64,000 nucleotides of DNA, taken from contig PYIZ01000009.1 of NCBI GenBank assembly GCA_003635265.1, positions 22,270 to 86,269 on the forward strand. Reading direction: 5' to 3'. The notes under the pieces are model-generated. The model made no database searches and was not told the origin of the DNA. It saw only the letters and a list, made by a program, of their open reading frames with translations. The position numbers were made by a program, and so were the translations under genes. This document shows positions 32,844-63,150 of this stretch, piece after piece. The stretch comes from Candidatus Poribacteria bacterium. Lineage in GTDB: Bacteria > Poribacteria > WGA-4E > PCPOR2b. Position 1 is the first letter of the stretch; every line of letters starts with the position of its first letter.

Positions 32844-33092
32844 ATCCCTCTCTGCATCAATTTTCTGTATGGGTCTGGCAACGTGCGCTGTCCAAGGATA
32901 GAAACCGATTGAGATAAGTGGATATGAATCCCGATTTATTGGGACAAATCCCGCTCTTTCGATGAGAGCAAGAGTCTGATTTTGGGGCTATAAGTAAACG
33001 ATCTTCATTATAGTTATTACGTGGCTGGTTGTCAACGGAATTGGCTCTATTCGACCAGAAATCTACGTAGAATTTGTAATGCCACTTTGGAA

Positions 33093-35118: not shown

Positions 35119-35152
35119 TTCTCAGATGAGGAAGCGATAAGTAGATTTTAGT

Positions 35153-38294: not shown

Positions 38295-38321
38295 CACTTT
38301 TCGGTTAGGTTCATATAAAAA

Positions 38322-38385
38322 GAAAGTGCAAAACGATAAGACCGTGAAACGTGAAAACTATTGGTTCATTAGTTCATTTACAGGA
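38322..38385 (+). repeat. Conserved 60-bp leader motif, copy 1 (AAAGAAAGTGCAAAACGA...CGTGAAACGTGAAAAC...TTGGTTCATTAGTT)
   Basis: Near-identical to 41467-41525. Related cores at 57135-57180, 62171-62230 and 34503-34517. Immediately upstream of the cupin gene RBS. Confidence 0.7.
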
Positions 38386-41454: not shown

Positions 41455-41466
41455 GGTTCATGTCAA

Positions 41467-41525
41467 AAGAAAGTGTAAAATGCAAAGCGCGTGAAACGTG
41501 AAAAGCATTTGTTCATTAGTTTGTT
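41467..41525 (+). repeat. Conserved 60-bp leader motif, copy 2
   Basis: AAAGAAAGTGTAAAATGCAAAGCGCGTGAAACGTGAAAAGCATTTGTTCATTAGTT. Directly after the stop of the paralog gene and upstream of the lipoprotein gene. Confidence 0.7.
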
Positions 41526-41734
41526 GGCAGTAAGAAGCAATGATCGTTGTTCACTACCGTTTCTGTTGTATAATTTTTTAACTTGAGCCAACTTAAATCA
41601 TCATTTTGGATTAAATTACTATCACCGATTGACTGAAACCGCGCATTCATCTATGCGTTTTTGTTATTGGATAAATCTTGGCAGCCCATTTTGGCTGAAT
41701 ACACCCAAAATTTCAACCTACAAGGACAAGAACG

Positions 41735-47456: not shown

Positions 47457-48772
47457 AAGTACTGGTTGTTGATGATGAAAAAATCAAACTAATTACACTA
47501 CGCGATGATTTGCGCGAGGCGAACTACGATACTATTGCGGTTGAATCTCCAGCGATTGGACTACAACTTGTGCAGAACGAACATTTTGATGTTCTGGTTA
47601 CCGATTTGCGCCTGCCGAAGATGCACGGAATTGAATTTCTCAAGCGCGTCCAGAAGGAGCAGCCCCATATTATTGTGATTGTCATGACCGCCTATGCGAG
47701 TGTCGAAACCGCTGTGGAAGCGATGAAATTTGGGGCGTATAACTATATCAAGAAACCGTTTTCCAGCGAAGAACTGATTCAGATGTTGGATAAACTGAAA
47801 ATGCTCCACGGTAGAGATAAACAGCGTTCACAACTAAAAATTCCGATGAAAGGACGCTCTCCATACCATCATATTATTGGGAAAAGTCAAGCGATACAAG
47901 ACCTCTTTGACCTGCTTGAAAATATCTCCGACACCCAGAGTACTGTGCTAATCTACGGTGAACATGGTACAGGAAAGACGCTCGTTGCAAAATCAATTCA
48001 TTTTAACAGCACGCGTAGGCTCCATCCCTGTAGAATCGTAAACTGCTCAGGAATACATGCCGACACGTTGGATCGAGAACTATTTAGAGACAAGCAAACG
48101 GCAGGCGAGTTTGGGCGTAAAGGGACCCTTTTTCTTAAAGATATTGATGCACTTCCTGTTGCACTACAGATTAAATTCCTACAGGTACTGGAGAGGCAGC
48201 AGCTAAACCTAAGCAGAAGCGCACAAAGGGAGGATGTGCGGATTATTGCTGCGACAACCAAAAACTTGCGTACAAAGGTTCATAATGGGGAATTTCGAGA
48301 CGATCTCTTCTACCGTCTAAACGTTGTCCCGATTTTTCTGCCACCGTTACGTGAACGGGTCGAGGATATTCCTCTCTTAATTAATCACTTTTTAGATTTA
48401 TTCTCACCCAATACCCCTATTCACATTGCTCCCGAAGTTGTCGAGGTGCTCACAGCATATCCATGGCCCGGCAATGTCCGCGAATTAGAAAATGTGATCG
48501 AACGGCTTGTAACGATTGGAGACAAGACAGATATTACCACGGACGATATTCCGCTTGAGTTGAAACTACCAGCGCAGGTCAGTTTAGATGAGACGTTGAG
48601 TGAGATCTCCTTCCAAGAGATTATCCAGTCGACAGAGCGCGAACTCATCGGTTGGGCGATGAAAAAAGCAAAGGGGAACAAAACACAAGCCGCAAAACTG
48701 CTCAAAATGAAGCCCTCAACCTTCCGTGATACCCTTGCCAAGTATATTAACCAGATCGAATGGCAGACGTGA
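47453..48772 (+). CDS. NtrC-family sigma54-dependent response regulator (REC-AAA+-Fis HTH)
   Basis: REC domain (VVDDE...D at LVTDLRLP). AAA+ Walker A GEHGTGKT. C-terminal HTH (KTQAAKLLKMKPSTFRD). The GAFTGA loop is degenerate (QTAGEF). Overlaps the kinase gene by 4 bp. Confidence 0.8.
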   Translation: MKVLVVDDEKIKLITLRDDLREANYDTIAVESPAIGLQLVQNEHFDVLVTDLRLPKMHGIEFLKRVQKEQPHIIVIVMTAYASVETAVEAMKFGAYNYIKKPFSSEELIQMLDKLKMLHGRDKQRSQLKIPMKGRSPYHHIIGKSQAIQDLFDLLENISDTQSTVLIYGEHGTGKTLVAKSIHFNSTRRLHPCRIVNCSGIHADTLDRELFRDKQTAGEFGRKGTLFLKDIDALPVALQIKFLQVLERQQLNLSRSAQREDVRIIAATTKNLRTKVHNGEFRDDLFYRLNVVPIFLPPLRERVEDIPLLINHFLDLFSPNTPIHIAPEVVEVLTAYPWPGNVRELENVIERLVTIGDKTDITTDDIPLELKLPAQVSLDETLSEISFQEIIQSTERELIGWAMKKAKGNKTQAAKLLKMKPSTFRDTLAKYINQIEWQT

Positions 48773-49359
48773 AGGCGAGGGAGGCAAACCAAATGAATCA
48801 GAAGCAGGAACGCGAGCGGCTTCGGGGGGAAGTCCTCCGCAAGAGGGACAGCATCCCGCTAAGTGTGAGAACCGAACTGAGCCGACGGATTGTCCACCAT
48901 GCAATCAACTGGATTGAGGTGAACCGAGCCGATGCCGTGCTAATCTACCTTAGTATGCGAAGTGAGGTGGAGACCGGTGACTTGCTTAATTACCTGTTGG
49001 CTCAGAATAAGATTGCGCTTGCCCCTGTGATGCGTATGAAGCAGCGAGACCTGACACCATATCGTATCATGGATGCAAAAGAAGATCTTGTTCTCCATCC
49101 ATACGGCATGTACCAGCCGAATAATGAAACCTGTCCCTCTTTCCCTTTGAACCAGATTGATTTAATCTTTGTTCCCGGTGTTGCTTTTGACCTCCGGGGC
49201 TACCGCATTGGATACGGTGCGGGCTTCTATGATCGATTCCTGCCACAATGTCCGCAGGCAGTTTGGATTGGTTTAGCTTACGAAGCACAAATTGTGACAA
49301 ATACCTTTCCGCAGCCTTGGGACGTTCCCCTCCATCAGATCCTCACAGAGGCTGCGTGA
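48760..49359 (+). CDS. 5-formyltetrahydrofolate cyclo-ligase
   Basis: 199 aa. ...LIYLSMRSEVET...PGVAFD..GYRIGYGAGFYDRFL is the MTHFS signature. Confidence 0.8.
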   Translation: MADVKAREANQMNQKQERERLRGEVLRKRDSIPLSVRTELSRRIVHHAINWIEVNRADAVLIYLSMRSEVETGDLLNYLLAQNKIALAPVMRMKQRDLTPYRIMDAKEDLVLHPYGMYQPNNETCPSFPLNQIDLIFVPGVAFDLRGYRIGYGAGFYDRFLPQCPQAVWIGLAYEAQIVTNTFPQPWDVPLHQILTEAA

Positions 49360-49448
49360 TATTTGTTGAAGATTTCTAAGCCGTGGTGGACTGCTCGAAC
49401 GCGTCTGCCTATGTTTTTGTGCATTGTATTCGATGCCCAATTTTGCGC

Positions 49449-49476
49449 TTGACATGGGAGGCGCCTATGGTATAAT
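49449..49476 (+). promoter_or_regulatory. Consensus sigma70 promoter of the dcw cluster (no mraZ present)
   Basis: TTGACA, 16 bp, TATAAT. Followed by a 7-bp hairpin CCCTTCC...GGAAGGG (49517-49545) that abuts the GGAGG RBS of rsmH. Confidence 0.65.
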
Positions 49477-49592
49477 CCTTTTGTTTGAGGTAAAGCGGTC
49501 TAGGTCTTTTAGCAAGCCCCCTTCCAGATCAGCGTAGGAAGGGAGGTCATGCATGATTGTGCAGGACAAAAACTGGGGGCACTCAGAAAGAG

Positions 49593-50573
49593 ATGGGTCA
49601 GGGCCACATACCTGTTCTAGTTGATGAAGTGATTCAGTTTTTACAGCCGAAAAATCACGGTTTTTATGTGGATGGCACGGTTGGATTAGGTGGGCATGCC
49701 GCTGTCATTTTGCAAAAATCTGCGCCGGAAGGATTCCTACTTGGTATTGATTTGGACGTGGAGGCGTTGGCTATTGCCGAGGAAAGACTGCATAAATATA
49801 AGGAGCGGGTAACATTTGTCGGTGACAATTTCGCTCACTTAGATCAGCTGCCTCAACTACATCGCAGTAGAGATTCGCAGGAAACCACGGTTCGGCAAGT
49901 TGATGGCATTTTACTAGACCTAGGGGTATCGTCTTTGCAACTTGATACGCCGACAAGAGGGTTTAGTTTCAATCACTCTGGTCCTTTAGATATGCGGATG
50001 GATGCTTCCCAGGCTCTATCAGCGGCGCACGTTGTGAACCGCCATCCCGAAGACGCACTCGCAACGATTTTTACGCAGCTGGGTCAAGAACGCTGGTCTA
50101 AAAAGATTGCACGCCAAATTGTTCACGCTCGAAGACGTAAGCCAATCTCAACAACAGGTCAACTGGCTGAAATCGTTCTGGAGGCGATTCCCCCTAAATC
50201 AACGGGTTGGCGCATCCATCCCGCGACAAGAGTTTTTCAGGCGTTGCGAATCTATATTAACGATGAACTTAAAAACCTCCATTCCGGGATACATTGTGCT
50301 GCTTCCGCTTTGAAGCCCGGTGGACGCTTATGCATCATCTCTTTCCATTCTCTTGAAGATCGAATTGTTAAAGAACAGTTCCGCGCCCTCTCACGTGCTT
50401 GCATTTGCCCACCGAAGGCTCCTATCTGTATGTGTCAGCATACACCTACTCTTGAAATACTGACCAAGCGTCCAATAATTCCAACCCCCGATGAAATTCG
50501 ACGTAATCCTCGGTCCCGAAGTGCGAAATTACGAGTTGCGATGAAGATCCACGAATCTAAAACGCCAGATTGA
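49593..50573 (+). CDS. rsmH: 16S rRNA (cytosine1402-N4)-methyltransferase RsmH (MraW)
   Basis: HIPVLVDEV...DGTVGLGGH...LLDLGVSSLQLD... motifs. The ORF opens at 49557; the start is probably the MGQGH codon. Confidence 0.9.
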   Translation: MGQGHIPVLVDEVIQFLQPKNHGFYVDGTVGLGGHAAVILQKSAPEGFLLGIDLDVEALAIAEERLHKYKERVTFVGDNFAHLDQLPQLHRSRDSQETTVRQVDGILLDLGVSSLQLDTPTRGFSFNHSGPLDMRMDASQALSAAHVVNRHPEDALATIFTQLGQERWSKKIARQIVHARRRKPISTTGQLAEIVLEAIPPKSTGWRIHPATRVFQALRIYINDELKNLHSGIHCAASALKPGGRLCIISFHSLEDRIVKEQFRALSRACICPPKAPICMCQHTPTLEILTKRPIIPTPDEIRRNPRSRSAKLRVAMKIHESKTPD

Positions 50574-50633
50574 ACGTTTCTTAAAAACCAGACGAGATGG
50601 TTTGCAAAGGAACAATTAGAGACTATTTTAACC

Positions 50634-50927
50634 ATGAAATACCAAAAACCAGCTCCATCGTCAAAATTTCATCCCTTTGCATACTTCGCGCTTGCCATTT
50701 ACATCGGTATCTTTTTTCTCAGTGCATGGTTTGCGTCAAATCAACACAAGGTTGCGTTGCAAATGCGTGAGGAATTTGAGCAGCGAAGAAATCAATTCCA
50801 CAACGAAATCAATAGGCTGAAGATAGAGGAAACAAGGCTCACCTCGATTGAACGGATTCACGAAATCGCGAAAGATCTTCAGATGGTTCAACCCTCTGAG
50901 TCAACCCGTGAGCTGCGCGCTGATTAG
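50634..50927 (+). CDS. ftsL: FtsL-like cell-division protein
   Basis: 97 aa, single TM then coiled coil, positioned between rsmH and ftsI. Assignment by position and architecture. Confidence 0.5.
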   Translation: MKYQKPAPSSKFHPFAYFALAIYIGIFFLSAWFASNQHKVALQMREEFEQRRNQFHNEINRLKIEETRLTSIERIHEIAKDLQMVQPSESTRELRAD

Positions 50928-51038
50928 GATCTGTGAATCGAGCGTTTAATTGTGCAATCGCTTAACTTTGGAGCATTCTGGAAATGTTCATCCCCTTGAA
51001 GAATATCCTCCACAATGCGGTTGTGAACTTGAAATGTA

Positions 51039-52904
51039 ATGGGTGATATGCCTCATATTTCGGGTAAGCCATTCAATCCTTGTGAGGTTCCTCACCAACG
51101 GTGCACACTGTTACACTTCTGCATTAATTGCCCTATGAACAACATACCTTTTTCCCGGATTACAATTGTATGGGTTGGTTTGGAACTATGTTTAGGATTA
51201 TTGATAGGACGTTTGTTTCTAATCCAGTATGTACACGGTCGGGAGCTGCGTGAACGCTCTGAAAATCAGCGTAACACGGAAGTAGGCTCTCAGACAAAGC
51301 GCGCTACGATTTTGGATCGGCACGGCAGCGTCTTTGCAATCAATCAGGACTTAGTCTCGGTCTATGCAGATCCAAAGGTGCTGAAAGATGAGCCTGATGA
51401 TATTGCTCGTAAACTTGCGCCGTTGCTCAACGTTTCGGAAGATAGACTATTGTCGATACTGCAGCAAAAGAAAAGGCGTTTTGTTTGGCTGAAGCGGAAC
51501 TTAGATTATGAACGCCTTAATGACATCCGCCAAGTCACTAAAGGCATTTATGGGATCGGATATCGGACCCATGGAAAACGGTCTTACCCAAAAGACGAAC
51601 TAGCGTCCCATATTATTGGATATACCAATTTTGAAAATAGAGGCATTGACGGAATTGAGCATCAATACGATACATATCTAAGTACAGATAACAGAAATGA
51701 CCTCCCGGAATCACAGCCAAAAAGTAATCGAATCACCGCCGATGGAAAGAGACGCCCGATTCGTCCGCCACAACTTTATCAACAAGGGAGGCGATACGGT
51801 CGTAGCATTGTCCTTACGCTTGACGAATACATCCAACATATCACAGAAAGGGAACTGATTGCCGGTTGCGAGGAGTGGCAAGCAAGAGCGGGTAGTGCGA
51901 TCGTTATGCACTCCAAAAGTGGCGAGATTTTAGCATTAGCAAATTATCCGAATTACAATCTCAATGACTACTCAAGGAGTGAAGAGTCAGCCAAACGAAA
52001 TCGTGCCATCTGGATGCAATACGAACCCGGTTCCGTATTTAAGATCGTCACTGCTGCTGCCCTCCTCAACGAGAAACTGATGTCTCCGGACTCACGTGAA
52101 TATTGCGAGATGGGGGAATATCATTTGTCCAATGGGCATGTCGTTCACGATGTTAAGCCCAATGCGTGGTTAACGCTCAACGAAATTATCGCAAAATCCA
52201 GTAATATTGGCATCCTCAAGGCTGCGAGGTATCTTGATAAAGAGCAGTTGGAGACCTATACGCGCCGGTTTGGTTTTGGTGAAAAAACGGGTATAGATCT
52301 GCCTTACGAACGTGCCGGCAGCTTGAGAGGTATCGAAAAATGGGATGACTACACGATTGCCTCTGTTCCGTTTGGGCAGGGGATTTCTGTGACTCCCATA
52401 CAGATGTTGAATGCCATCAACGTAATTGCTACCAAAGGTGTGCTGCTACAGCCGTATATCACTCGACAAATTATTGATAAGGAAGGAAGTCTGCTGGAAC
52501 AATCAGTCCCCCAGCCAATTCATCGCGTTATTTCTGCAGAAACCGCACAGGCGATAACACAAATGCTTGTTGGGGTGACGGAAGCGGGTGGTGGGCAGAG
52601 GGCGCGCGTCGAAGGATATACAGTGGCTGGCAAGACCGGCACAGCACAGAAAGCGGAACGAGGAAAAGGGTACGTCGAAGGCAAAGTGGTTACCACTTTC
52701 GCAGGATTTCTTCCAGCGGAGGATGCCTTATTCTCAATTATTGTTGTTGTTGACGAGCCGGCGGCGGCTCCATTGAGCAGCCATGTTACCGCACCGATGT
52801 TCCAGAGGATTGCGAGTGAAGCGATGTGGTATTTGAGTCAAAAGGACCTCTTTGTTCAGAAATCAACCTCAAGCTATGCGGGAAACCAATCAGCACTTCA
52901 GTAA
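51039..52904 (+). CDS. ftsI: Peptidoglycan D,D-transpeptidase FtsI (class B PBP)
   Basis: TM anchor, then the active-site motifs SVFK, SSN-like (SSNIG) and KTGT (KTGTA). The start is probably an internal ATG (MNNIPFS). Confidence 0.85.
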   Translation: MGDMPHISGKPFNPCEVPHQRCTLLHFCINCPMNNIPFSRITIVWVGLELCLGLLIGRLFLIQYVHGRELRERSENQRNTEVGSQTKRATILDRHGSVFAINQDLVSVYADPKVLKDEPDDIARKLAPLLNVSEDRLLSILQQKKRRFVWLKRNLDYERLNDIRQVTKGIYGIGYRTHGKRSYPKDELASHIIGYTNFENRGIDGIEHQYDTYLSTDNRNDLPESQPKSNRITADGKRRPIRPPQLYQQGRRYGRSIVLTLDEYIQHITERELIAGCEEWQARAGSAIVMHSKSGEILALANYPNYNLNDYSRSEESAKRNRAIWMQYEPGSVFKIVTAAALLNEKLMSPDSREYCEMGEYHLSNGHVVHDVKPNAWLTLNEIIAKSSNIGILKAARYLDKEQLETYTRRFGFGEKTGIDLPYERAGSLRGIEKWDDYTIASVPFGQGISVTPIQMLNAINVIATKGVLLQPYITRQIIDKEGSLLEQSVPQPIHRVISAETAQAITQMLVGVTEAGGGQRARVEGYTVAGKTGTAQKAERGKGYVEGKVVTTFAGFLPAEDALFSIIVVVDEPAAAPLSSHVTAPMFQRIASEAMWYLSQKDLFVQKSTSSYAGNQSALQ

Positions 52905-52959
52905 TTGGGGTTACTTGGTTCATATCGTCTAGGTTGCGATATCCCCGGAAGATAAGCGG

Positions 52960-53790
52960 ATGAAAAGCGTAAATGTAAAGTGCCTACTTTGCATTACAAT
53001 ATTGGCACTGGTCGTTGTCAACCAAGCTGAAAGTGACATTCGAGTTGCCCCAGATGTGGTTGGTTTAGCCGTTGGGGGAGAGTTAGTTATTGTGGGGAAG
53101 TTGTTAGCAGCAGAGGAGAAGGTGGACACGCAAATTCAGGTGCAGTATACGGATGTCGTCGTAGAGGTTGTCCAAGTCATTCGGAATATAACAGAACAGG
53201 AGATAAAGGTCGGTGCCACTATCAATTTTCGCCTCCCTGACGTGCCAATCGGTTATGGCAGATTTGAAGCGGAGTTTAGCAAAGAGGAAATAGGTGATTT
53301 ACTTCTGTTACCGCTAAAACGACCTCACCCCCGAACAACAGTGGGTCGCAGAAAAGGGTTTGACACCATTTTTGACGTTTATGGGGGAGACCATGGGAAA
53401 CACACCGTTAGAATTAAAAATGACCTTCCTATGGTGTATCTGTTTGGGCTGAAGCGAAGGGTCGAAGACCCACAATTTCGACGTTCACGTAATCGACGGT
53501 TACATAACGACCATTATCGAGAGTTGGAGATTGGATTGCCTCTTGACTGGGTTCTAGAGGTAATGAATATAGCGATTATTGTCAATGCTAGGAATCCGGT
53601 GAAAAACCCGAAAGATCCCGGAGACATACCCGCAGAAATCAGGCTTCAGTATGAACGGCTTAGAAGTTTAGAAAAATCGGTTCGCAAATTAGCACGGGAT
53701 GGCAGATCAGAAGCCTCTATTATCAAAACTGCTCGTAAAGAACTCGATCAATTTAAAGAGGAATTAGACCTAGAAAAAGGGAACGAATAA
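52960..53790 (+). CDS. Hypothetical secreted protein (276 aa) inserted between ftsI and murE
   Basis: Signal peptide (LLCITILALVVVNQAES), a charged C-terminal coiled-coil tail. No known motif. Confidence 0.4.
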   Translation: MKSVNVKCLLCITILALVVVNQAESDIRVAPDVVGLAVGGELVIVGKLLAAEEKVDTQIQVQYTDVVVEVVQVIRNITEQEIKVGATINFRLPDVPIGYGRFEAEFSKEEIGDLLLLPLKRPHPRTTVGRRKGFDTIFDVYGGDHGKHTVRIKNDLPMVYLFGLKRRVEDPQFRRSRNRRLHNDHYRELEIGLPLDWVLEVMNIAIIVNARNPVKNPKDPGDIPAEIRLQYERLRSLEKSVRKLARDGRSEASIIKTARKELDQFKEELDLEKGNE

Positions 53791-53879
53791 GACAAAAACA
53801 GGGTTTTCTTTTACACAGTGATTGTATTTTTTTTGGCTTTGTTCGTTATAGAATTTTCTGAAGGTCGGAGGTGGACTAG

Positions 53880-55337
53880 GTGGTGAACTTACATCGCTTA
53901 CTCAAAGGAGTAAATATCCTCTCATCAATTGGGGAACTCGATAAAGATATTACTGGCATTGCGAGCGATAGTCGAGCCGTGGAGCCGGGGTGCGCCTTCG
54001 TCTGCTACGAAGGTGTCAACGTCGATGGCCACACCTTTATTCCACAAGCCATCCAAAACGGCGCAACGACGATTGTTGGGGAGAAACCAGAATCGGTGCC
54101 GTCGGGTGTTACCTATATCCAAACGCCAAACGGACGCATCGCGTTCTCGCTCATCGCAGCAAATTGGTACGGGAATCCGGCGGATCGACTGAAACTGATT
54201 GGCATCACTGGTACAAATGGCAAAACCTCAACAGCGCATTTAGCGCATTCAATCTTCAAAGCTGCTGGGTTGAAATCGGGGCTCATGGGCACAGTTGGAA
54301 CCCGTTACGCAGATGTCTTTGTGGAGCCAACGATTACGACACTTGAGCCTTTGACGCTTCACGAACTGTTCCGAGACATTGCCGATGCTGGCGTAGATTA
54401 TGTCATCATGGAAACCTCATCGCAAGGGCTTGCACAACACCGATTGGCTGGACTCACTTTTGAAACGGCGGTTTTCACCAATCTGACACAGGACCATCTT
54501 GACTACCATGAGACGATGGAGGAATACCTGAATGCCAAGATGATGCTGTTTCAGCAACTCAATCCTGACAACGGTCTGGCAATCCTGAACGCCGACGATT
54601 CCGCCTCCGATTCAATCCGTCATCAAATCAACCCCCCAAGTCTCACCTTTGGGGTTGAGCAACCGGCGGATTTGTTGGTCTGTAATGTAGAGTCAACCCT
54701 CAAACGCCTCTCATTCGTCGCCGACACACCGAAGGGAAATATTTCAGCCAATCTGCGTCTGTTGGGCGATTACAACCTATATAACGCTCTCGCTGCGATT
54801 GGGATAGGGGTGCACCACGACTGCTCGCTTGAGGCGATCCAAGTGGGACTGGAATCCACAATTGTACCGGGACGATTTGAGTTGGTTGACCGAGGACAGC
54901 CTTTTGCCGTTGTCGTGGACTATGCGCATACGCCCGACGGTTTGGAAAATCTGTTGATCGCTGCACGAAAGATTACGCAGGGCAATTTAATCTCCGTCTT
55001 TGGCTGTGGCGGCGATCGGGACCGTGGCAAGCGTCCGAAGATGGGCAATATCTCCGCAACCATCGCCGATCACAGCGTTGTCACCTCCGACAACCCACGC
55101 ACCGAAGAGCCAGACGCTATCCTCGCCGATATTGTGGAAGGCTTGCCCGATGGTGCAAGTTACGATCTAATTCAGGACCGCCGGACTGCCATCGGTCATG
55201 CAATTGAGTTGGCAAAGGCGGGTGATCTTGTTGCCATCGCAGGCAAGGGGCATGAGCCGTATCAAGAGATTAATGGCGTCCGATTTGATTTCGATGACAG
55301 GGAAATTGCAGGGGAGTTTCTTGATCAGTTGAAGTAG
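53880..55337 (+). CDS. murE: UDP-MurNAc-L-Ala-D-Glu:meso-DAP ligase
   Basis: GITGTNGKTST P-loop, the DNPR motif of the DAP-adding enzyme (TSDNPR), and a Mur ligase C-terminal domain. Confidence 0.9.
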   Translation: MVNLHRLLKGVNILSSIGELDKDITGIASDSRAVEPGCAFVCYEGVNVDGHTFIPQAIQNGATTIVGEKPESVPSGVTYIQTPNGRIAFSLIAANWYGNPADRLKLIGITGTNGKTSTAHLAHSIFKAAGLKSGLMGTVGTRYADVFVEPTITTLEPLTLHELFRDIADAGVDYVIMETSSQGLAQHRLAGLTFETAVFTNLTQDHLDYHETMEEYLNAKMMLFQQLNPDNGLAILNADDSASDSIRHQINPPSLTFGVEQPADLLVCNVESTLKRLSFVADTPKGNISANLRLLGDYNLYNALAAIGIGVHHDCSLEAIQVGLESTIVPGRFELVDRGQPFAVVVDYAHTPDGLENLLIAARKITQGNLISVFGCGGDRDRGKRPKMGNISATIADHSVVTSDNPRTEEPDAILADIVEGLPDGASYDLIQDRRTAIGHAIELAKAGDLVAIAGKGHEPYQEINGVRFDFDDREIAGEFLDQLK

Positions 55338-55387
55338 CACTAATGAAATAATTTTATTCAACTACGGCATCAGGAGGTGAGTTTAAC

Positions 55388-55609
55388 ATGGATATGGGCG
55401 CAACAGCCGACCTCGCATTTTTGGGGCTAGTAATCTCATTAGTCTTTTATATTGTTCTTTTTTGGGTGCTTATACGATTCATTCGCGCAGTGGAAAAGAT
55501 CGCAGACAACTTCTGGTCAATTGCGAGGGCACATACACGTTCTGTTGACGCGATCGAAAAAGTTGCAAACAGGATTGAGAGAATCGCAGACAACGAGAAC
55601 ACCAGATAA
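55388..55609 (+). CDS. Small membrane protein (73 aa) between murE and murF
   Basis: One TM helix (LAFLGLVISLVFYIVLFWVLI) followed by a charged helix with internal repeat IEKVANRIERIADNE / VEKIADNF. RBS GGAGG upstream. Confidence 0.35.
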   Translation: MDMGATADLAFLGLVISLVFYIVLFWVLIRFIRAVEKIADNFWSIARAHTRSVDAIEKVANRIERIADNENTR

Positions 55610-55704
55610 TAGAGGCAAATTGACCTGTTCAACCGCACCTACTATTATTATCCATTCCAGTAGGCTGGGCACAGGAAACAATTGCTCATACCCCACCCAT
55701 CATT

Positions 55705-57072
55705 ATGAACCTCACAATTGCTGAAATCCTACAGACAACGCAGGGTAACCTGATCCAAGGCAATCCCAACACCGTAATAACGCAGGTCTCGACAGACTCA
55801 CGGACACTCAAAAAGGGTGACCTCTTTGTCGCACTGGTCGGTGAAAAATTCGATGGACATAATTTCCTAGAGGGCGTGTGTCAGCAAGGTGCAATCGGGG
55901 CGGTTGTCTCGAAACCAGCAGCCGATGCCTCTCAACTTGTACCGCCGATTATTGTGCAAGTGAACGATACGCTCGCTGCGCTGGGGGATATTGCCAACCG
56001 TCATCGCAGCAAGTTCGATCTGCCGATAATCGCTATCACGGGCAGCAACGGCAAGACCACTACAAAGGACATAACAACTTCTGTGTTGGCACAGCGGTTT
56101 TCCGTTTTCAAATCTGAGAAAAGTTACAACAATCAGATTGGTATCCCCTCACGATTGATGCAACTCAGCAACGCTGATGAGATTGCCGTATTAGAGATTG
56201 GCACTAGTTGGCCCGGAGAGATTGAGCGGTTGTCGCAGATAACAGCGCCGACCGTCGGAGTGATTACCAATATTGGACCGGCACACTTGGAATTGTTAGG
56301 TTCACTTGAAGGGGTTACCGAGGAGAAAGGGGCGTTGCTAACGCATGTCGAACATGCCCTCCTTAACGCTGATGATCCGATGACGCCGAGGCTTGCTGGC
56401 CGTGTATGTGGTCAAATCACCACATTTGGTTGGCATAATGATGCGGATATTGCTGCAGGCGAAATTGAGATTGACAGTTTCGGCAAGCCTACGTTCACGT
56501 TGATAATCGATGGGGATGACATTGACAGGGTGCATTTACCTTGTCTGGGAAAACATAATATCTACAATGCTCTCGCTGCCGCTGGGGTAGGTATCTGGGC
56601 GGGCTTAATGCCTGCAGAAATTTGTGCTGGGCTAGAAGGTTTTCAGCCGGCGGACATGCGGATGCAGCCGACTGTGCACAACGACCTACGCATCATCAAC
56701 GACGCCTATAACTCAAACCCAGAGTCACTCAAGTCTGCTTTGGCATTTCTTAGCGATATCGAAATAGCTGGCAAGCGAATTGCAATCCTTGGTGATATGC
56801 TTGAACTTGGCGAACATTCTCACACACTCCACCTGAAAACAGGAGTGGCTATCCCAACCAACATCAACCTATTGATTACCGTTGGTCCCCATAGCCGCGC
56901 AATCGCTGAGGGAGCGGAAGGCATCGTTGAATCTATCATCTCCTGTGATACGCCAAAGCAAGCGGCACAAGAACTGATCCAATATGTTCAACCCGGTGAT
57001 GCGGTGCTTATCAAGGGGTCACGCGGGATAAAATTGGAGCAGGTTTTGGAAGAACTGATGCGTGAAACCTAG
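55705..57072 (+). CDS. murF: UDP-MurNAc-tripeptide:D-Ala-D-Ala ligase
   Basis: ITGSNGKTTTK P-loop and Mur ligase middle and C-terminal domains. 455 aa. Confidence 0.9.
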   Translation: MNLTIAEILQTTQGNLIQGNPNTVITQVSTDSRTLKKGDLFVALVGEKFDGHNFLEGVCQQGAIGAVVSKPAADASQLVPPIIVQVNDTLAALGDIANRHRSKFDLPIIAITGSNGKTTTKDITTSVLAQRFSVFKSEKSYNNQIGIPSRLMQLSNADEIAVLEIGTSWPGEIERLSQITAPTVGVITNIGPAHLELLGSLEGVTEEKGALLTHVEHALLNADDPMTPRLAGRVCGQITTFGWHNDADIAAGEIEIDSFGKPTFTLIIDGDDIDRVHLPCLGKHNIYNALAAAGVGIWAGLMPAEICAGLEGFQPADMRMQPTVHNDLRIINDAYNSNPESLKSALAFLSDIEIAGKRIAILGDMLELGEHSHTLHLKTGVAIPTNINLLITVGPHSRAIAEGAEGIVESIISCDTPKQAAQELIQYVQPGDAVLIKGSRGIKLEQVLEELMRET

Positions 57073-57134
57073 AGTTTGGCACCTAATCACCAATGGTGCT
57101 AGTTTACAACTGTTGATATGCTTGCCGGTCAAAG

Positions 57135-57180
57135 ACCGAAGGTGAAACGTAAAATGTGAAAATCGTTTGTTCATCAATTT
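57135..57180 (+). repeat. Leader motif family, copy 3 (GGTGAAACGTAAAATGTGAAAATCGTTTGTTCATCAATT)
   Basis: Shares the GTGAAAC-GT(G/A)AAAA core and the TTTGTTCAT box with the copies at 38322 and 41467. Lies in the unusual 340-bp murF-mraY gap. Confidence 0.6.
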
Positions 57181-57410
57181 ATGAATGAGCCAATGAATTG
57201 ACGAACTCTCCTAGTAATCAGGATTTTACTCCGCTCAACTTGAACGATATGGAAACAAGATCCCCACCAAATAGCACCAAAGGCTAATAGTTTGGGTAGG
57301 ATCAGGCTTGAAATTGTCGGTTAAGCGGAAGGAAGCAGTTGCTGTCTTTCCTTCCTCATTTCTCATTGCTTCCAATTTCCAAAGGATAAACCTTAAATCA
57401 AAAGTTACCC

Positions 57411-58514
57411 ATGCTCTACTATCTATTTTTTGAACAACTGACAGAGTTTTTTTCGCCGTTGAATGTTTTTCGTTATATTAGCTTTCGGTCCATCTATGCA
57501 ACAATAACCGCGCTACTTATAGCCCTCATCTTAGGCCCTTTCGTTATTCAACATCTGAGACGATTGAAAATCGGTCAGCATGTCCGCGATGATGGTCCCG
57601 AAACCCATTTCAGCAAAGAGGGTACGCCGACAATGGGTGGCGTACTGATTATCACGTCCGTGCTGATTTCAATTTTGTTGTGGGCGCGATTGGATCAGCC
57701 TTATATTTTTATCCTCACCTTTAGTATTCTGTGGTTTGGCGGACTCGGCTTTCTGGACGATTACCGGAAGATTACCAAACAACAATCACTTGGATTGAAG
57801 GGTTGGCATAAGCTCTTTTTACAAGCAGTCGGTGCACTTGCCATTGCCTACTTCCTCTACCAATGGGGACCCGTTCCCAAAGACAGCTTGACCGAGAGAA
57901 CATCAATTATCATTCCTTTCTTTAAGCAACTTCGCCCAGACCTCGGCGTATTCTTTATTCCATTTGCAGCGTTCGTCATTGTCAGTGCGTCCAACGCTGT
58001 TAATCTTACGGACGGGCTTGATGGTCTAGCAATCGGCTGTACGCTGTTTGTCGCAGCCACATTTGGTATATTAGGCTACCTTACAAGCCACCAACAGTTA
58101 GCAAATTACCTCGACATCGCCCACATTCCAGTTGGTGGAGAGGCTGCGACTATCTTCTGTGCTGCATTAATTGGAGCCGGTGTGGGTTTTCTATGGTATA
58201 ATTGTCACCCAGCACAGGTTTTCATGGGAGATACAGGTTCGTTAGCCCTTGGTGCAGTACTTGGAACAATTTCTATCTTAATCAAGGAAGAGATTCTACT
58301 TGTGATTGTTGGTGGAATTTTTGTGGCAGAAGTGCTCTCCGTTATCATCCAAGTTGTATCTTATAAAACACGAAAAAAACGGGTGTTCAGGATGTCACCA
58401 CTACATCACCATTTTGAACAGCTCGGTTGGCCCGAGCCGAAAGTTGTGCTGCGTTTCTGGATTATTGGATTGATTTTGATGCTCGTCGCACTGAGCACCC
58501 TCAAATTGCGATAA
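57411..58514 (+). CDS. mraY: Phospho-N-acetylmuramoyl-pentapeptide transferase
   Basis: 10 TM helices, with the DD (NLTDGLDGLA) and HHH (SPLHHHFE) motifs of MraY. Confidence 0.9.
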   Translation: MLYYLFFEQLTEFFSPLNVFRYISFRSIYATITALLIALILGPFVIQHLRRLKIGQHVRDDGPETHFSKEGTPTMGGVLIITSVLISILLWARLDQPYIFILTFSILWFGGLGFLDDYRKITKQQSLGLKGWHKLFLQAVGALAIAYFLYQWGPVPKDSLTERTSIIIPFFKQLRPDLGVFFIPFAAFVIVSASNAVNLTDGLDGLAIGCTLFVAATFGILGYLTSHQQLANYLDIAHIPVGGEAATIFCAALIGAGVGFLWYNCHPAQVFMGDTGSLALGAVLGTISILIKEEILLVIVGGIFVAEVLSVIIQVVSYKTRKKRVFRMSPLHHHFEQLGWPEPKVVLRFWIIGLILMLVALSTLKLR

Positions 58515-58589
58515 TGGGAAAAGGGGCAGGCAGAAAACGGCGAAGGTTCAATAATTAAAAATAGTTCAAATCTGTGTAAGGGGAAGACC

Positions 58590-59336
58590 ATGCGACTACA
58601 GAATAAGATTGCCCTCGTCACTGGTGGGGCAACCGGCATCGGTGCTGCTACAGCTATGATGTATGCAAGAGAGGGAGCAAAAGTCATCATTGCTGATCTG
58701 AATGAGGCAGATGGTAAGGCAACTGCACAATCTATTGAAGCAGAAGGCGGCACCGCCCAGTTTATACGGATCGATGTGTCTCAAGAGGCGGAGGTTGCTG
58801 CAATGGTGGAATCCGTCGAGCAGAAGTTTGGGAGGCTTGATGTGTTGGTGACCTGTGCTGGCATCCTGCTGGGTGCAGCGGTACGGATTGATCAATTTGA
58901 CGCAGAAGCGTGGGATGCCGTCATCAGGGTCAACTTGCGGGGGACCTTCCTGTGCACTAAACATGCTGTTCCACTGATGGAAAAGAGCGGCGGTGGGGTC
59001 ATTGTGCTGATAGCGTCGGGAGCAGGGGTGACGGGGCCCAGTGCCTCCGTCGCCTACGGTGCTAGCAAAGGCGGTGTGCGTGGGTTAGGATTTACGTTGA
59101 AGAATCAGGTTGAACCGTTAGGTATCCGCGTGCATGTCGTTTGTCCCGGTAACCTCAATACACCCCTGAAGCTCAGGGCGATCGCCGAAATTGCAGAGCG
59201 GGGTGGAGAATCACCGGAGGCGGCTGTTGCTGCCGCACAATCCACCCTGTTTAAGCCGGAGGAGGTCGCCAAGGTGCTGACAGATCTCGCTTCTGACGCG
59301 GGGGTAAATGCCGACGAACTGGTATTTACAAAGTGA
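58590..59336 (+). CDS. SDR-family oxidoreductase
   Basis: TGGATGIG and NAG-equivalent motifs, and a Y..xK triad (YGASK). Confidence 0.85.
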   Translation: MRLQNKIALVTGGATGIGAATAMMYAREGAKVIIADLNEADGKATAQSIEAEGGTAQFIRIDVSQEAEVAAMVESVEQKFGRLDVLVTCAGILLGAAVRIDQFDAEAWDAVIRVNLRGTFLCTKHAVPLMEKSGGGVIVLIASGAGVTGPSASVAYGASKGGVRGLGFTLKNQVEPLGIRVHVVCPGNLNTPLKLRAIAEIAERGGESPEAAVAAAQSTLFKPEEVAKVLTDLASDAGVNADELVFTK

Positions 59337-59364
59337 CCTGAACTGCTGTCTGTTTTCTATTCAT

Positions 59365-59525
59365 TAGAACTTACGCAGTTGAACGATGAGGTGTTGTAGT
59401 TCGATCCTTCATCGCCAATGCGGGGCAGGCTCCCCCGTCGACGATGGGTGTGGTGTCTGAAAATGTCTTTTGACGCGCAATGAATTGCGCGACTACAAAC
59501 TCAAGTGTGTAACTCCTAATTGGCT
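59365..59525. repeat. Composite intergenic repeat, copy D (full length)
   Basis: AGAACTTACGCAGTTGAACGATGAG...CATCGCCAATGCGGGGCAGGCTCCCCCGTCGACGATGG...CTGAAAAT...CTACAAACTCAAGTGTGTAACTCCTAAT. Co-linear with copy C, about 85% identity by eye. Confidence 0.8.
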
Positions 59526-59674
59526 TTCGTTGGCAGTAGCAACTCTCTATTCACTTTTCGTAAATTTTTGCTGCGAGGAAATAACTCTTTACATTTTCAG
59601 TAATTTTAGTATATAATGAGTGACACACTGCTGCGAGATAGAGCAGATGCAGCAGTAACGAAAAGAGAAGGCGG

Positions 59675-60250
59675 ATGGTTTTATCAGATCGGGATATTGT
59701 TCGTTATCAGGAAATGGGGAAAATCAAAATCACTCCTCCCCCGGATCTTACTAAACAACTCGGTTCCTGTTCCATCGATTTCCGGCTAGGGAATACCTTT
59801 CGGTTGTTTGAGCACAGTAAGTATCCCTATATCGATCTGCGCGAAGATATTGATCCTAACGAACTGATGCACAAGATGGAAGTCCCCGACGGTGAAGCGT
59901 TCACCATGCAGCCGGGAGAATTTGTGCTTGCGGCAACCCTCGAAACCCTCGAACTCGCCGACGATGTGATGGCACGGCTCGAAGGTCGTAGTAGCCTTGG
60001 CAGGCTTGGCATTATTGTCCACAGCACGGCGGGGCTTTTTGATCCGGGTTGGGTTGGGACTGCGACATTAGAACTAGGAAACTTGGGACGTATGCCAGTT
60101 AAACTCTACCCCGGTATGCGGATCTGTGCATTTACATTTGAAGAGTTATCCTCTCCTGCAAAAGTACCCTATCGTCGAAAACCGGGTAACAAATATGCAG
60201 GACAAGTTGAACCGGAAGCCAGTCGTTTTGTGCGGGATTTGAATCAATAA
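59675..60250 (+). CDS. dcd: dCTP deaminase
   Basis: MVLSDRDI...ITPPPD..QLGSCSIDFRLG...VHSTAGLFDPGWVG are dCTP deaminase/dUTPase-fold motifs. Confidence 0.85.
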   Translation: MVLSDRDIVRYQEMGKIKITPPPDLTKQLGSCSIDFRLGNTFRLFEHSKYPYIDLREDIDPNELMHKMEVPDGEAFTMQPGEFVLAATLETLELADDVMARLEGRSSLGRLGIIVHSTAGLFDPGWVGTATLELGNLGRMPVKLYPGMRICAFTFEELSSPAKVPYRRKPGNKYAGQVEPEASRFVRDLNQ

Positions 60251-60474
60251 ATAGTTGTATTGCTAAAAACTTTAGCAGTAATCTGCCCAATAATTCAGCA
60301 TCTATGGATTAAGGCATTTATATTGCACCACTAATTGTATACTAGAAGGATACCTCGCATAGTGAGATAATCAGGGGCAAACCGCCTATCAGAGCCAAGT
60401 CTCTGCTACAAATAAGAAAAAGACAAGATAGAGAAAAATTAGTGTAAGTTCTCATTTTGAAAGCGATTTGATTA

Positions 60475-60491
60475 TTGGCATATCGCTTGCT
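60475..60491 (+). promoter_or_regulatory. Candidate sigma54 (-24/-12) promoter upstream of glnA
   Basis: TGGCAT-ATCGC-TTGCT matches TGGCAC-N5-TTGC, with GG and GC spaced exactly 10 nt. About 200 bp upstream of the glnA ATG. Confidence 0.5.
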
Positions 60492-60688
60492 CTATATCTT
60501 TGAGGTGTTCCGTTTTCAAATTCCATAGTTTCCAATAATTTGTTGAGTAGGGTGTATGAAAAGTGGTACAAATGTCTTCTGTTGGGAGGCTGCTCATAGG
60601 CGTTCCTGATGAGCCCGCTAGGTAATGCCAACCCTACTTCGTTTAACCGTCATTGCTTGGCTCAATATTTTAATTAAGGAGATTTTAG

Positions 60689-62131
60689 ATGACACCAAGT
60701 GAAGTCGTTGCGCTTGCAAAAGAAAAAGAGGTCAAAATTGTTGACTTTAAATTCACGGATCTGCCTGGCATGTGGCACCACTTTTCGATTCCCGCAACAG
60801 AGTTAGAGGAAGACCTGTTTGAAGATGGACTCGGTTTTGATGGTTCAAGTATTCGTGGTTTCCAAGCGATTAACGAAAGCGACATGCTCCTTTTCCCGGA
60901 TCCGGATACAACCATTGTGGATCCGGTTTGCAAAATTCCGACCCTCAGTCTTATTTGCAACATTAAGGATCCAATTACCCTAGAAAGCTATAGTCGAGAT
61001 GTGCGGCATATCGCTCAAAAGGCGGAAGCGTATCTCAAGAGCACTGGAATTGCGGATACGAGCTATTGGGGACCTGAAGCTGAATTTTTTATTTTCAACG
61101 ATGTTCGTTATTACCAAAATCAGCATTCGGCCTTTTATTCCGTTGATTCTGTTGAAGGCAGCTGGAATACAGGTAAAGGGAGTTGGAATCCAAACACAGG
61201 CGACTATGACGCGCCGAACCTCGGATACAAACCGCGTTACAAGGAAGGGTATTTCCCCGTACCGCCATCGGATACACTGCAAGATATTCGATCTGAAATG
61301 ATTCTCAAGATGATCGATTGCGGGGTTGATGTAGAGGTTCACCACCATGAGGTCGGCACCGGTGGTCAGGGTGAGATCGATCTCCGGTTTGATACCATGA
61401 CCACGATAGGCGATAAGCTGGCGCTGTACAAGTACATCATCAAGAATACAGCCCGTGCCCACAACATGACGGCGACCTTTATGCCAAAGCCACTTTTTGA
61501 AGACAACGGCTCAGGCATGCACTGTCATCAAAGTTTATGGAAGGATGGGAAAAACATCTTCTACGATCCGCAGGGATATGCCGGGTTAAGCGAAACCGCG
61601 TTGTATTACGCCGGTGGTCTCCTTAAACATCTACCGTCGCTGTGCGCTATCATTGCACCGACAACCAATTCTTACAAGCGGTTGGTCCCGGGCTATGAGG
61701 CACCGGTGAATCTTGCATATTCGCAACGAAACCGGAGCGCATGTGTCCGTATTCCTGTATACTCTCAGAGTGAGAGAGCGAAACGACTGGAACTCCGTAC
61801 ACCAGATCCTTCCTGTAACGCATATCTCGCCTTTAGCGCAATGCTGATGGCGGGTCTTGACGGTATCCGGAATCAGATTCACCCCGGTGAACCGCTTGAT
61901 AAAGACCTGTACGATCTGGAGCCAGAGGAACTGGCAGAAATTGAATCAACGCCGGGCTCCTTAGCTGAGGCACTTGATGCCTTAGAGGACGACCATGACT
62001 ACCTGCTCGAAGGCGATGTGATCACGCAGGACGTGATTGATACATGGATAGAGTATAAACGTGAAAACGAAGTCGATGCAGTCAACCTCCGTCCGCATCC
62101 ACACGAATTTCATCTCTACTATGATATTTAA
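60689..62131 (+). CDS. glnA: Glutamine synthetase type I
   Basis: 480 aa, with the GSI beta-grasp and catalytic motifs ([25 protein letters not shown] adenylylation-region residues). Confidence 0.9.
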
Positions 62132-62170
62132 TTGGTTGAATTTCATTTTCAGTTGTAGATAACAATGAGA

Positions 62171-62230
62171 GTAAAGCGTAAAACGTAAACTGTTAAGTAG
62201 GTTTCCTACGTTTCTACGCTTTACTAAAAT
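62171..62230 (+). repeat. Leader motif family, copy 4, with an internal palindrome GTAAAGCGTA...TACGCTTTAC
   Basis: GAGTAAAGCGTAAAACGTAAACTGTTAAGTAGGTTTCCTACGTTTCTACGCTTTACTAAAATC, directly upstream of glnB. Confidence 0.6.
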
Positions 62231-62280
62231 CACAGGGTTGAGGGGTTGTGAGCATCACTGTTTCAATAAAGGAGAAATAA

Positions 62281-62622
<342 letters not shown>

Positions 62623-62679
62623 ACGCAAACCTCAATTCAAATAACAATGCAATTGTAGGGGGCAACTTCTTGATCAGAG

Positions 62680-62699
62680 AGGGGTCGTCCCCTATATTT
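62680..62699 (+). terminator. Weak hairpin after glnB (AGGGG-TCGT-CCCCT then ATATTTG)
   Basis: 5-bp GC stem with a 4-nt loop and an AT-rich tail. Marginal as an intrinsic terminator. Confidence 0.3.
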
Positions 62700-63058
62700 G
62701 TGCCCATCGCGGCAATTCATTACTGGACCATCACTTTTATTTCCTTTCCGAAATTACAGAACATCTCCTTCTCCACCTCCGCAGATCCTACCTCATTTCA
62801 AGTTGCTGAGATCCGTAATCATAGAGGCGGTTGGGAAACCCAACCGCCTAGGAAGGATCGTGCTTCTGTGCACACCCCTTGATTATCTGGTTGTGATGAA
62901 ATATCAATAGAACCTCGCCACTGAAAATCCATCGGATTATTGGTAAAGTTGATTTCAACCTTTTGCTCCAAAGGAGCGTTATGTATATAGAAACAGAATA
63001 CGACATACAACTGCGCTCCAGAGGAGCGCAATATGTATAGCAAATACCCAATTTTTGC

Positions 63059-63088
63059 TTGACGCTTTTTCGATTAAAATGCTATTAT
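63059..63088 (+). promoter_or_regulatory. Sigma70-type promoter for the ABC transporter gene
   Basis: TTGACG, 18 bp, TATTAT. Preceded by two 25-bp direct repeats (62966-62990 and 63016-63040). Confidence 0.5.
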
Positions 63089-63150
63089 TTCTCCTTGTTT
63101 TGCCATTAATCAATCCTAGCCACTCAAAGGAATAGAGGTGATTGTTGAAC

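Follow-up and report, generated by a model that had tools for sequence, protein, structure and literature searches.

A rearranged, probably split dcw cluster without mraZ and with lineage-specific inserted genes in Candidatus Poribacteria

The canonical dcw cluster of E. coli runs mraZ-rsmH-ftsL-ftsI-murE-murF-mraY-murD-ftsW-murG-murC-ddlB-ftsQ-ftsA-ftsZ, and MraZ is a repressor that acts at the Pmra promoter in front of it. A survey of dcw clusters described a history of loss and delocalisation with "likely no gene gain", and fragmented clusters kept as sub-clusters were reported, for example, in the ancestors of Planctomycetes and Chloroflexi (Leonard et al., 2022, PMC8871954).

Here, we describe a dcw locus from a sponge-associated Candidatus Poribacteria bacterium, encoded in a 64-kb window (the whole stretch of DNA that was analyzed). 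Pfam and NCBIfam assignments give rsmH-ftsL-ftsI-[276 aa]-murE-[73 aa]-murF-mraY on one strand, which is the canonical gene order from rsmH to mraY interrupted by two inserted genes. The profile assignments agree with the gene calls and coordinates of a first-pass annotation of the same DNA. The features of the locus are:

48760..49359, + strand, 5-formyltetrahydrofolate cyclo-ligase gene (Pfam PF01812, E 1.4e-40), occupying the would-be mraZ position
49449..49476, + strand, sigma-70 promoter TTGACA(49449)-16 nt-TATAAT(49476) with a TG extended -10, matching at 12/12 positions; putative dcw (mra) operon promoter
49519..49543, + strand, hairpin CCCTTCC(49519-49525)-N11-GGAAGGG(49537-49543) in the rsmH leader, present in the MFE fold, with its 3' arm overlapping GGAGG
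49557..50573, + strand, rsmH (mraW) (Pfam PF01795, E 4.6e-120; NCBIfam TIGR00006, 379 bits against a cut-off of 154)
50634..50927, + strand, ftsL (Pfam PF04999, 28.3 bits against a cut-off of 22.9)
51039..52904, + strand, ftsI, class B penicillin-binding protein with PBP_dimer and Transpeptidase domains
52960..53790, + strand, first inserted gene, 276-aa secreted protein (signal peptide, OB/TIMP-like beta-barrel, helical domain at the C-terminus)
53880..55337, + strand, murE, three Mur ligase domains (Pfam)
55388..55609, + strand, second inserted gene, 73-aa protein that spans the membrane once; a single long helix is predicted, and E[KR][IV]A[DN][NR] motifs recur in the sequence
55705..57072, + strand, murF, Mur ligase domains (Pfam)
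57411..58514, + strand, mraY, the final dcw gene of the locus (PF00953 and MraY_sig1)
58590..59336, + strand, SDR oxidoreductase gene (PF00106, E 1e-55), marking the rearrangement junction downstream of mraY

For rsmH, the ATG at 49593 (MGQGHIPVL...) is a more likely start, judging from the sequence, than the TTG of the longest reading frame at 49557. The ftsL product scores under the cut-off of the NCBIfam ftsL_broad profile (E 4.6e-9), and its identity is supported by the Pfam score above the gathering threshold and by its placement between rsmH and ftsI. Downstream, the order mraY-SDR-dcd-glnA-PII is kept within the clade. We have good confidence in reading the locus as an ordinary rearranged dcw cluster that is split, has its own conserved promoter, has no mraZ, carries lineage-specific inserts and has undergone repeat-driven changes in its spacers.

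Only 0.01 perfect promoter sites are expected by chance in the window, and two were found. The hexamers and spacing of the site upstream of rsmH are invariant in seven clade genomes and in L012 and L013 (nine poribacterial genomes), and the perfect promoter of the first-pass annotation is thereby corroborated. Its further claim that mraZ is missing also holds: the 5-formyltetrahydrofolate cyclo-ligase gene is found upstream instead, as it is in six clade genomes too, and mraZ is absent from every poribacterial locus examined. There was no MraZ Pfam match upstream of the dcw genes in L012 or L014, and tblastn of the window with approximate E. coli and Bacillus subtilis MraZ queries returned nothing at E below 0.6. 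The dcw operon would be transcribed from the promoter at 49449 free of MraZ repression, and a perfect promoter with no mraZ suggests either that initiation is strong and constitutive or that another factor controls it.

The hairpin reported in the rsmH leader exists, but it does not behave as a conserved element: we detected no covariation or compensatory changes among the clade sequences compared, and one relative (L007) has lost the 5' arm. Across relatives, 76% of cells are paired and 24% unpaired, and the folding z-score of the leader is -0.73. No Rfam match was obtained at E up to 1. Lacking covariation and an Rfam match, the hairpin was rejected as an intrinsic terminator or riboswitch-like leader, and it is weakly supported as a functional element.

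Homologues of murD, ftsW, murG, murC, ftsQ, ftsA and ftsZ were found nowhere in the 64-kb window. The cluster does stop after mraY, as stated previously, but it is split rather than truncated. One closed genome from the window's clade has a separate and intact murD-ftsW-murG-murC-ftsQ-ftsA-ftsZ block (L090) at 2.41 Mb, on the same 6,345,663-bp contig that encodes the proximal half (L005) at 6.25 Mb; the halves are ~2.5 Mb apart. The distal half thus seems to have been relocated rather than lost. Its presence and place in the source genome are extrapolated from this relative, whose orthologues in the region are ~75-97% identical. Given that the distal half is intact elsewhere in a same-clade genome, nothing suggests an incomplete pathway.

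The dcw genes also end after mraY in L012 and L013 (MraY 80% identical), while two more distant relatives retain the mraY-murD adjacency. One of these, L014 (MraY 75% identical), has a compact 13-gene cluster from rsmH to ftsZ, and in the other, L091, mraY and murD are contiguous. The identity pattern makes the window clade and L012/L013 sisters (in a crude identity-based tree). The history under a single break is complicated by L091, which has hydrolase and ddl insertions in common with L012/L013. The sister lineages gained different genes, a hydrolase and ddl versus the 276-aa gene and the small membrane-helix gene.

The spacers of the locus have also been modified. The earlier description of a 340-bp gap between murF and mraY carrying a GTGAAAC leader is right about the long gap (338 bp) and not about the leader motif, given that GTGAAAC occurs 12 times in the window against 10 expected and is therefore at chance level as a bare motif; the gap length is due to an insertion of ~205 bp. 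The elements concerned are:

57080..57290, + strand, window-specific insertion that lengthens the murF-mraY spacer by ~205 bp; it is a degenerate dispersed repeat and includes GTGAAACGTAAAATGTGAAAA
57327..57355, + strand, conserved hairpin GGAAGGAAG-loop-UUUCCUUCC in the mraY leader, its nine-pair stem kept in 6/7 clade genomes
59364..59518, + strand, REP-like dispersed repeat downstream of the SDR gene, whose core is the hairpin GCGGGGC-AAGAT-GCCCCGC; other copies at 35152-35306 and 11007-11072

The insertion is absent from L005, L006, L007, L010 and L011, whose murF-mraY spacers are about 125-150 bp long, and L009 has a different insertion in this spacer. It is weakly similar to a repeat at 38307/41454 and to intergenic DNA of L009 and L010. 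The SDR gene and then a repeat were previously placed downstream of mraY, and we recovered both; the repeat is 83% identical to the copy at 35152-35306 and has three copies in the window. Further copies occur in other poribacterial loci, and in L001-L003 arrays of the repeat flank a Y1 transposase gene (Y1_Tnp). A TnpB/OrfB gene is located between ftsL and ftsI in L007-L009. REP-like repeats and IS elements are spread throughout the genome, and their insertion into dcw spacers accounts for the length of the murF-mraY gap and for how plastic the locus is in general.

The two inserted ORFs are, on comparative sequence evidence, real conserved lineage-specific genes under purifying selection. Omega is 0.17-0.31 for the 276-aa gene and 0.37-0.42 for the 73-aa gene (0.17-0.42 overall), compared with 0.07-0.10 for murE and 0.17-0.23 for ftsL. 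Neither protein has a match in Pfam, NCBIfam, PDB sequences, PHROG or PADLOC. The 276-aa protein has 63 homologues at 49-100% identity, and those with names are annotated as hypothetical proteins of Candidatus Poribacteria, apart from one labelled "bacterium"; the protein is 100% identical to the Candidatus Poribacteria hypothetical protein C6502_01805. The 276-aa gene reported between ftsI and murE is confirmed. The 73-aa protein is 100% identical to the Candidatus Poribacteria hypothetical protein C6502_01815 and has 17 homologues. Its description as a single-TM protein with a repeated charged helix is borne out by one strongly hydrophobic segment (residues ~9-29; maximum KD19 2.86 at residues 11-29), by three E[KR][IV]A[DN][NR] motifs (residues 36, 57, and 64) and by an AF2 model with a single helix over residues 3-72 (pLDDT 82). 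An RFIR sequence that follows the TM segment, together with an acidic N-terminus, indicates that the charged C-terminal helix is probably cytoplasmic. DUF8066 (PF26262) was rejected as an identity for the 73-aa protein, since it was not among the hmmscan hits even with the E limit raised to 10. A weak or faint precomputed match to the same Pfam family is recorded on some of the homologues.

Both inserted genes were put forward in the first-pass annotation as candidate accessory factors of the divisome or elongasome. In such a scenario, the 276-aa protein would act with periplasmic FtsI, and the small helix would hold MurE, MurF, or MraY at the membrane or regulate them there. We consider this unlikely for the pair, although part of the underlying claim, that the genes are conserved, stands. 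Besides being under purifying selection, both genes lie inside the operon, flanked by short spacers of 50-95 bp in which no terminators were called, and from this spacing they may well be co-transcribed with the dcw genes. Homologues of the small gene (48-73 aa, one or two copies) occur between murE and murF in 7/7 clade genomes, and the order of genes around murE-murF has been argued to mirror assembly of a Mur complex (PMC10214165). The 276-aa homologue of a second genus also neighbors envelope genes (Omp85/POTRA, FlgD_ig, and heptosyltransferase). However, linkage of the 276-aa gene to dcw does not extend across the phylum: homologues at 66% and 59% identity adjoin an Omp85/POTRA gene or recJ, the gene is missing between ftsI and murE in the sister genome L011, and its homologues in L001-L004 are outside the dcw cluster. 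These observations argue against a core divisome role and make the gene look like a recent arrival at this site. Neither gene is found in the intact L014 cluster or in L012, L013, and L091. Neither the length nor the copy number of the small gene is constant (L005 and L006 have tandem pairs); it is frameshifted in L010 and has a relatively high omega of ~0.4. Moreover, the same or neighboring spacers of relatives hold other non-dcw genes (an alpha/beta hydrolase, TnpB, and a DUF6290 ORF in the distal half), so insertion there carries little functional information.

Under our preferred reading of a rearranged cluster, the 276-aa protein would be a Poribacteria-restricted secreted envelope protein whose gene landed between ftsI and murE in this clade only and is dispensable there, and the small protein would be a single-pass membrane helix whose gene has a fixed place, between murE and murF, throughout the clade. 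Of the two inserted genes, the one for this helix is the better accessory-factor candidate. Quite doubtfully, the small protein, which has tandem EK(I/V)A(D/N) repeats and is encoded in one or two copies, could be a lineage-specific organizer of the cytoplasmic peptidoglycan steps. Its charged helix would recruit MurE and MurF to the membrane beside MraY, partly making up for the distance between the two parts of the cluster and for the lost control by MraZ.

A host-directed role for the 276-aa protein, in which it would inhibit sponge metalloproteinases in the manner of TIMP/NTR proteins while its gene was simply lodged among the dcw genes, is very improbable. The idea draws on the signal peptide, on a family found only in Poribacteria, a phylum first found in marine sponges, and on the AF2 model (pLDDT 73.5, pTM 0.72), whose N-terminal barrel superposes best on OB-like barrels of the TIMP/NTR (netrin-module) type. 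The best Foldseek structures are TIMP-1/2, PCOLCE NTR, agrin NtA, and complement C345C domains (E 8e-3 to 0.1; probability 0.9-0.99). However, these scores are weak, with E 8e-3 at best and none at or below 1e-3, and TM values of 0.2-0.46, and the matches cover a generic OB-like barrel; a viral structure library returned SSB-type OB folds. TIMP/NTR modules rely on an N-terminal cysteine and disulfides, whereas the predicted mature protein has neither a cysteine nor a disulfide framework, shows no sequence similarity to them, and has a C-terminal helical domain foreign to the TIMP fold. That the inserted ORFs are spurious, non-coding spacer is extremely improbable: the missing database matches and the small ORF not being called in some relatives would fit, but 63 and 17 homologues respectively, conserved columns, dN/dS well under 1 and confident predicted folds speak against it.

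The normally rigid dcw cluster is thus seen, in a repeat-rich and uncultured symbiont phylum, with a clean break between mraY and murD, no mraZ at the loci examined and a conserved promoter. The locus offers a useful case to those who study how dcw clusters evolve or who annotate Poribacteria, and it draws attention to one small-protein family and one secreted-protein family. It reveals no new mechanism or missing pathway; the main practical value is in correcting the reading of the locus from truncated, with new divisome factors, to split, with hitchhiking lineage-specific genes.

The short GC-rich intergenic hairpin repeats, which in relatives form arrays to the left and right of a Y1 (IS200-like) transposase gene, resemble REP/RAYT (REPIN-type) systems, although the 155-nt unit in the window is longer than classic REPs. 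As at the MraZ-regulated Pmra, a promoter directly precedes the first dcw gene, but the poribacterial loci examined have no repressor gene and their promoter matches the consensus perfectly, extended -10 included. The locus is like the canonical dcw/mra cluster in having identical genes in identical order from rsmH to mraY, on one strand and with a strong promoter in front. It differs in lacking mraZ, in carrying two extra genes and in ending after mraY, with murD-ftsZ forming a separate sub-cluster in a clade relative. In contrast to the survey of Leonard et al. (2022, PMC8871954), lineage-specific genes have been gained inside the proximal sub-cluster of Poribacteria.

The ORF listing and the Pfam and NCBIfam scans of the window bear out the gene map of the first-pass annotation on the forward strand, where two ORFs without any family are inserted among the proximal dcw genes.

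Features of the proximal dcw locus (window coordinates)
48760-49359, forward strand, 5-formyl-THF cyclo-ligase gene
49557-50573, forward strand, rsmH (likely true start at ATG 49593)
50634-50927, forward strand, ftsL
51039-52904, forward strand, ftsI
52960-53790, forward strand, first inserted gene, 276-aa ORF
53880-55337, forward strand, murE
55388-55609, forward strand, second inserted gene, 73-aa ORF
55705-57072, forward strand, murF
57073-57410, murF-mraY spacer, 338 bp
57411-58514, forward strand, mraY
58590-59336, forward strand, SDR gene

The two inserted proteins match C6502_01805 (276 aa) and C6502_01815 (73 aa) of a Candidatus Poribacteria MAG, both annotated as hypothetical, at 100% identity, which places the window in this phylum, discovered initially in marine sponges. 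An exact-sequence look-up with the 276-aa protein gave no record, and its relatives served in its place. Neither yielded anything meaningful in Pfam (E up to 10), NCBIfam, PHROGs, PADLOC or a PDB sequence-profile search, and an earlier description of the present locus was not found in the literature on the poribacterial dcw cluster and FtsZ. The reading of the two genes as spurious ORFs is rejected by dN/dS. For comparison, the locus was followed in six other clade genomes (L005-L007 and L009-L011), a further close relative (L008), a sister clade (L012 and L013) and more distant Poribacteria (L014 and L091).

The 276-aa protein has 63 homologues (49-100% identity), of which those with names are Candidatus Poribacteria hypotheticals and one 'bacterium', the remainder being unnamed metagenome proteins. 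Because the family alignment has 52 invariant columns and omega against orthologues is 0.17-0.31, comparable to ftsL, the ORF is a real gene. When 1.84 billion representative proteins were searched with a profile, the family stood essentially alone, with one full-length representative plus fragments; five weak matches (E 1e-5 to 8e-4; four of 164-190 aa, one of 486 aa) contained no Pfam family. AlphaFold predicts (pLDDT 73.5, pTM 0.72) a hydrophobic, signal-like helix at the N-terminus, then a beta-barrel (residues 42-190, approximately) and three helices towards the C-terminus. The best PDB structural matches, the OB-like barrels of TIMP, NTR, C345C and agrin-NtA, are weak (E at least 8e-3, TM at most 0.46), and Foldseek against BFVD returned generic OB-fold noise alone. 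The predicted mature protein has zero cysteines, which rules out membership of the TIMP family.

The insertion between ftsI and murE holds in the window and five relatives (L005, L006, L007, L009 and L010), but the gene is cleanly missing from this position in L011 and its homologues outside the clade lie in other contexts. A 66% homologue is downstream of an Omp85/POTRA gene and is followed by a FlgD_ig gene and then a heptosyltransferase gene, and a 59% homologue adjoins recJ. The Omp85/POTRA context is that of a second poribacterial genus (L001-L003, 7737-11888, outside the dcw cluster), where a one-base spacer separates the homologue from the FlgD_ig-domain gene; its neighbours there hint at an outer-envelope role. 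The absence from L011 and the Omp85 and recJ contexts elsewhere argue for a mobile, phylum-specific gene for an envelope or secreted protein that probably joined the operon recently.

The 73-aa protein has 17 homologues and an omega of about 0.4, and is predicted by AlphaFold as a single continuous helix (pLDDT 82). Conservation lies in the C-terminal half, with the pattern IRALEKIADNLW...VEAIEKVADRIERIADNEN, and the hydrophobic segment near the N-terminus is variable. The topology may be N-out/C-in, to judge from an acidic N-terminus and the RFIR that follows the TM segment. When conservation at the murE/murF position was checked with an HMM against six-frame translations, a homologous ORF was present in this spacer in 7/7 clade genomes: in a 70-73-aa form in the window, L006, L007 and L009, in a 49-aa form in L011, and as short forms in tandem in L005. 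L006 carries two copies (73 aa and 49 aa), and in L010 (8215-8398) the gene is frameshifted and split across two reading frames, which makes it a pseudogene unless a homopolymer error in a long-read MAG is responsible. The HMM found no copy in other stretches of the fetched poribacterial loci, including L012-L014. The proposal that the two inserted genes encode divisome or elongasome accessory factors is weakened for the mobile 276-aa gene; the small membrane protein, judged by its position, is the stronger candidate of the two for an accessory protein linked to dcw. Each copy of its gene, both tandem copies included, has an invariant CTGTTCAAC motif after the stop codon (window 55610-55660 and equivalents in L005-L011), with a conserved TATTAT at variable distance downstream. 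An internal murF promoter at 55620 (TTGACC-17-TATTAT) is not claimed, because a 14-nt insertion in four relatives breaks the hexamer spacing.

Upstream of rsmH, the perfect promoter that had been reported, TTGACA (49449)-16-TATAAT (49476), scores 12/12 against consensus and has a TG extended -10; the whole window holds 2 perfect sites against 0.01 expected. Its hexamers, 16-nt spacing and TG are unchanged in the six other clade genomes and also in L012/L013, despite a different, divergent upstream neighbour gene, and L014 has a version close to consensus. The reported absence of mraZ from this position likewise stands: none was found upstream of rsmH at the window, clade, L012/L013 or L014 loci, and MraZ queries from E. 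coli and B. subtilis gave no tblastn match in the window or loci. By inference, a strong, conserved promoter drives the operon, with no autoregulation by MraZ. The only other perfect site, TTGACA-N17-TATAAT at 33007-33035 on the reverse strand, lies in a divergent intergenic region between ORFs at 31746-32843 (reverse) and 33187-34497 (forward).

The hairpin CCCTTCC-N11-GGAAGGG (49519-49543) in the rsmH leader folds in the window, but the folding energy of the leader is unremarkable (z = -0.73), the RNAalifold consensus structure does not include it, an explicit pair count gave zero compensatory changes with 24% of cells unpaired, and L007 is without the 5' arm. As a functional element the hairpin is unproven. 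An insertion of about 90 bp lies between promoter and start codon in L011 (about 3160-3260), in this one sister genome, with no match among the other fetched loci. Positions 48000-64000 of the window gave no Rfam match.

The long murF-mraY gap is real, but its extra ~205 bp (57080-57290) are an insert absent from relatives, whose spacers measure about 125-150 bp; the insertion that L009 has at this point is a different one. The window's insert is similar both to intergenic DNA of relatives and to a small repeat (38307-38383 and 41454-41530) in which GTGAAACGTGAAAA lies. GTGAAAC, proposed as a leader motif here, is rejected as such since the bare heptamer occurs at chance frequency; the longer GTGAAACGTGAAAA has exact matches in the two D3 repeat copies only. 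This second small repeat family, with a degenerate copy within 57120-57200, contains GTGAAACGTGAAAA...TTGGTTCATTAGTT and sits immediately 3' of genes, with an SD-like GGAGG after it. Within the part of the spacer that is conserved lies a nine-pair hairpin (57327-57355), a purine/pyrimidine stem GGAAGGAAG...UUUCCUUCC about 55 nt 5' of the mraY start. The hairpin is kept in 6/7 clade genomes, L005 having lost it by deletion, and may serve in processing, attenuation or transcript stability.

The repeat element noted after the SDR gene was recovered at 59364-59518 and belongs to a hairpin-repeat family with other window copies at 35152-35306 and 11007-11072. The core hairpin of this REP-like family is GCGGGGCAAGATGCCCCGC, and L001 has copies at 1929-2131 and 2642-2682. 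In relatives, arrays of the repeat flank a Y1 (IS200/RAYT-like) transposase gene on both sides, an arrangement that may point to a poribacterial REPIN/RAYT system. Other insertions lie within the cluster itself: an IS605-type OrfB/TnpB gene between ftsL and ftsI (L007/L008, 4351-5451; L009, 4535-5524), and, in L012, L013 and L091, an alpha/beta hydrolase gene between murE and murF and ddl between murF and mraY (L012, 6161-6931 and 8750-9955; L091, 1763-2647 and 4491-5840). Together with the spacer insertions, these point to a dcw locus that is generally permissive to insertions.

The cluster had been described as truncated after mraY. No homologues of murD, ftsW, murG, murC, ftsQ, ftsA or ftsZ lie within the 64-kb window, but in the L005 genome the missing block is intact elsewhere, so that the cluster is probably split. 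Scanning the window MraY against species genomes gave five poribacterial-type loci. L014 (MraY 75% identical) has a compact, complete rsmH-ftsL-ftsI-murE-murF-mraY-murD-ftsW-murG-murC-ftsQ-ftsA-ftsZ order. With the L014 MurG as query, MurG was located on the 6,345,663-bp contig that also bears L005, where orthologues of this region's genes are 75-97% identical to the window. The contig carries creatininase-murD-ftsW-murG-murC-(two small ORFs)-ftsQ-ftsA-ftsZ at 2.41 Mb and the proximal half at 6.25 Mb, about 2.5 Mb apart by the short way, assuming a circular contig, to which the suffix of its name points. The murC/ftsQ gap of this distal half (L090, 12795-13101) holds two small ORFs, one of 47 aa and one of 64 aa, the latter weakly matching DUF6290 (antitoxin-like). 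In L012 and L013 (MraY 80%) the cluster likewise ends at mraY, and in the more distant L091 mraY and murD are still contiguous. Since pairwise identities make the window clade and L012/L013 sisters, the simplest reading would be a single break between mraY and murD in their common ancestor. In L091, ftsZ and ftsA are non-adjacent.

The first-pass observations are thus confirmed and their interpretation finds partial support. What the uncultured phylum has here is a split dcw cluster, ordinary though plastic, that contains two real genes of restricted lineage distribution. Sub-clusters that keep internal synteny are a known pattern for dcw genes (PMC8871954), and the present locus resembles such fragmented clusters in being split into sub-clusters with their internal gene order preserved.
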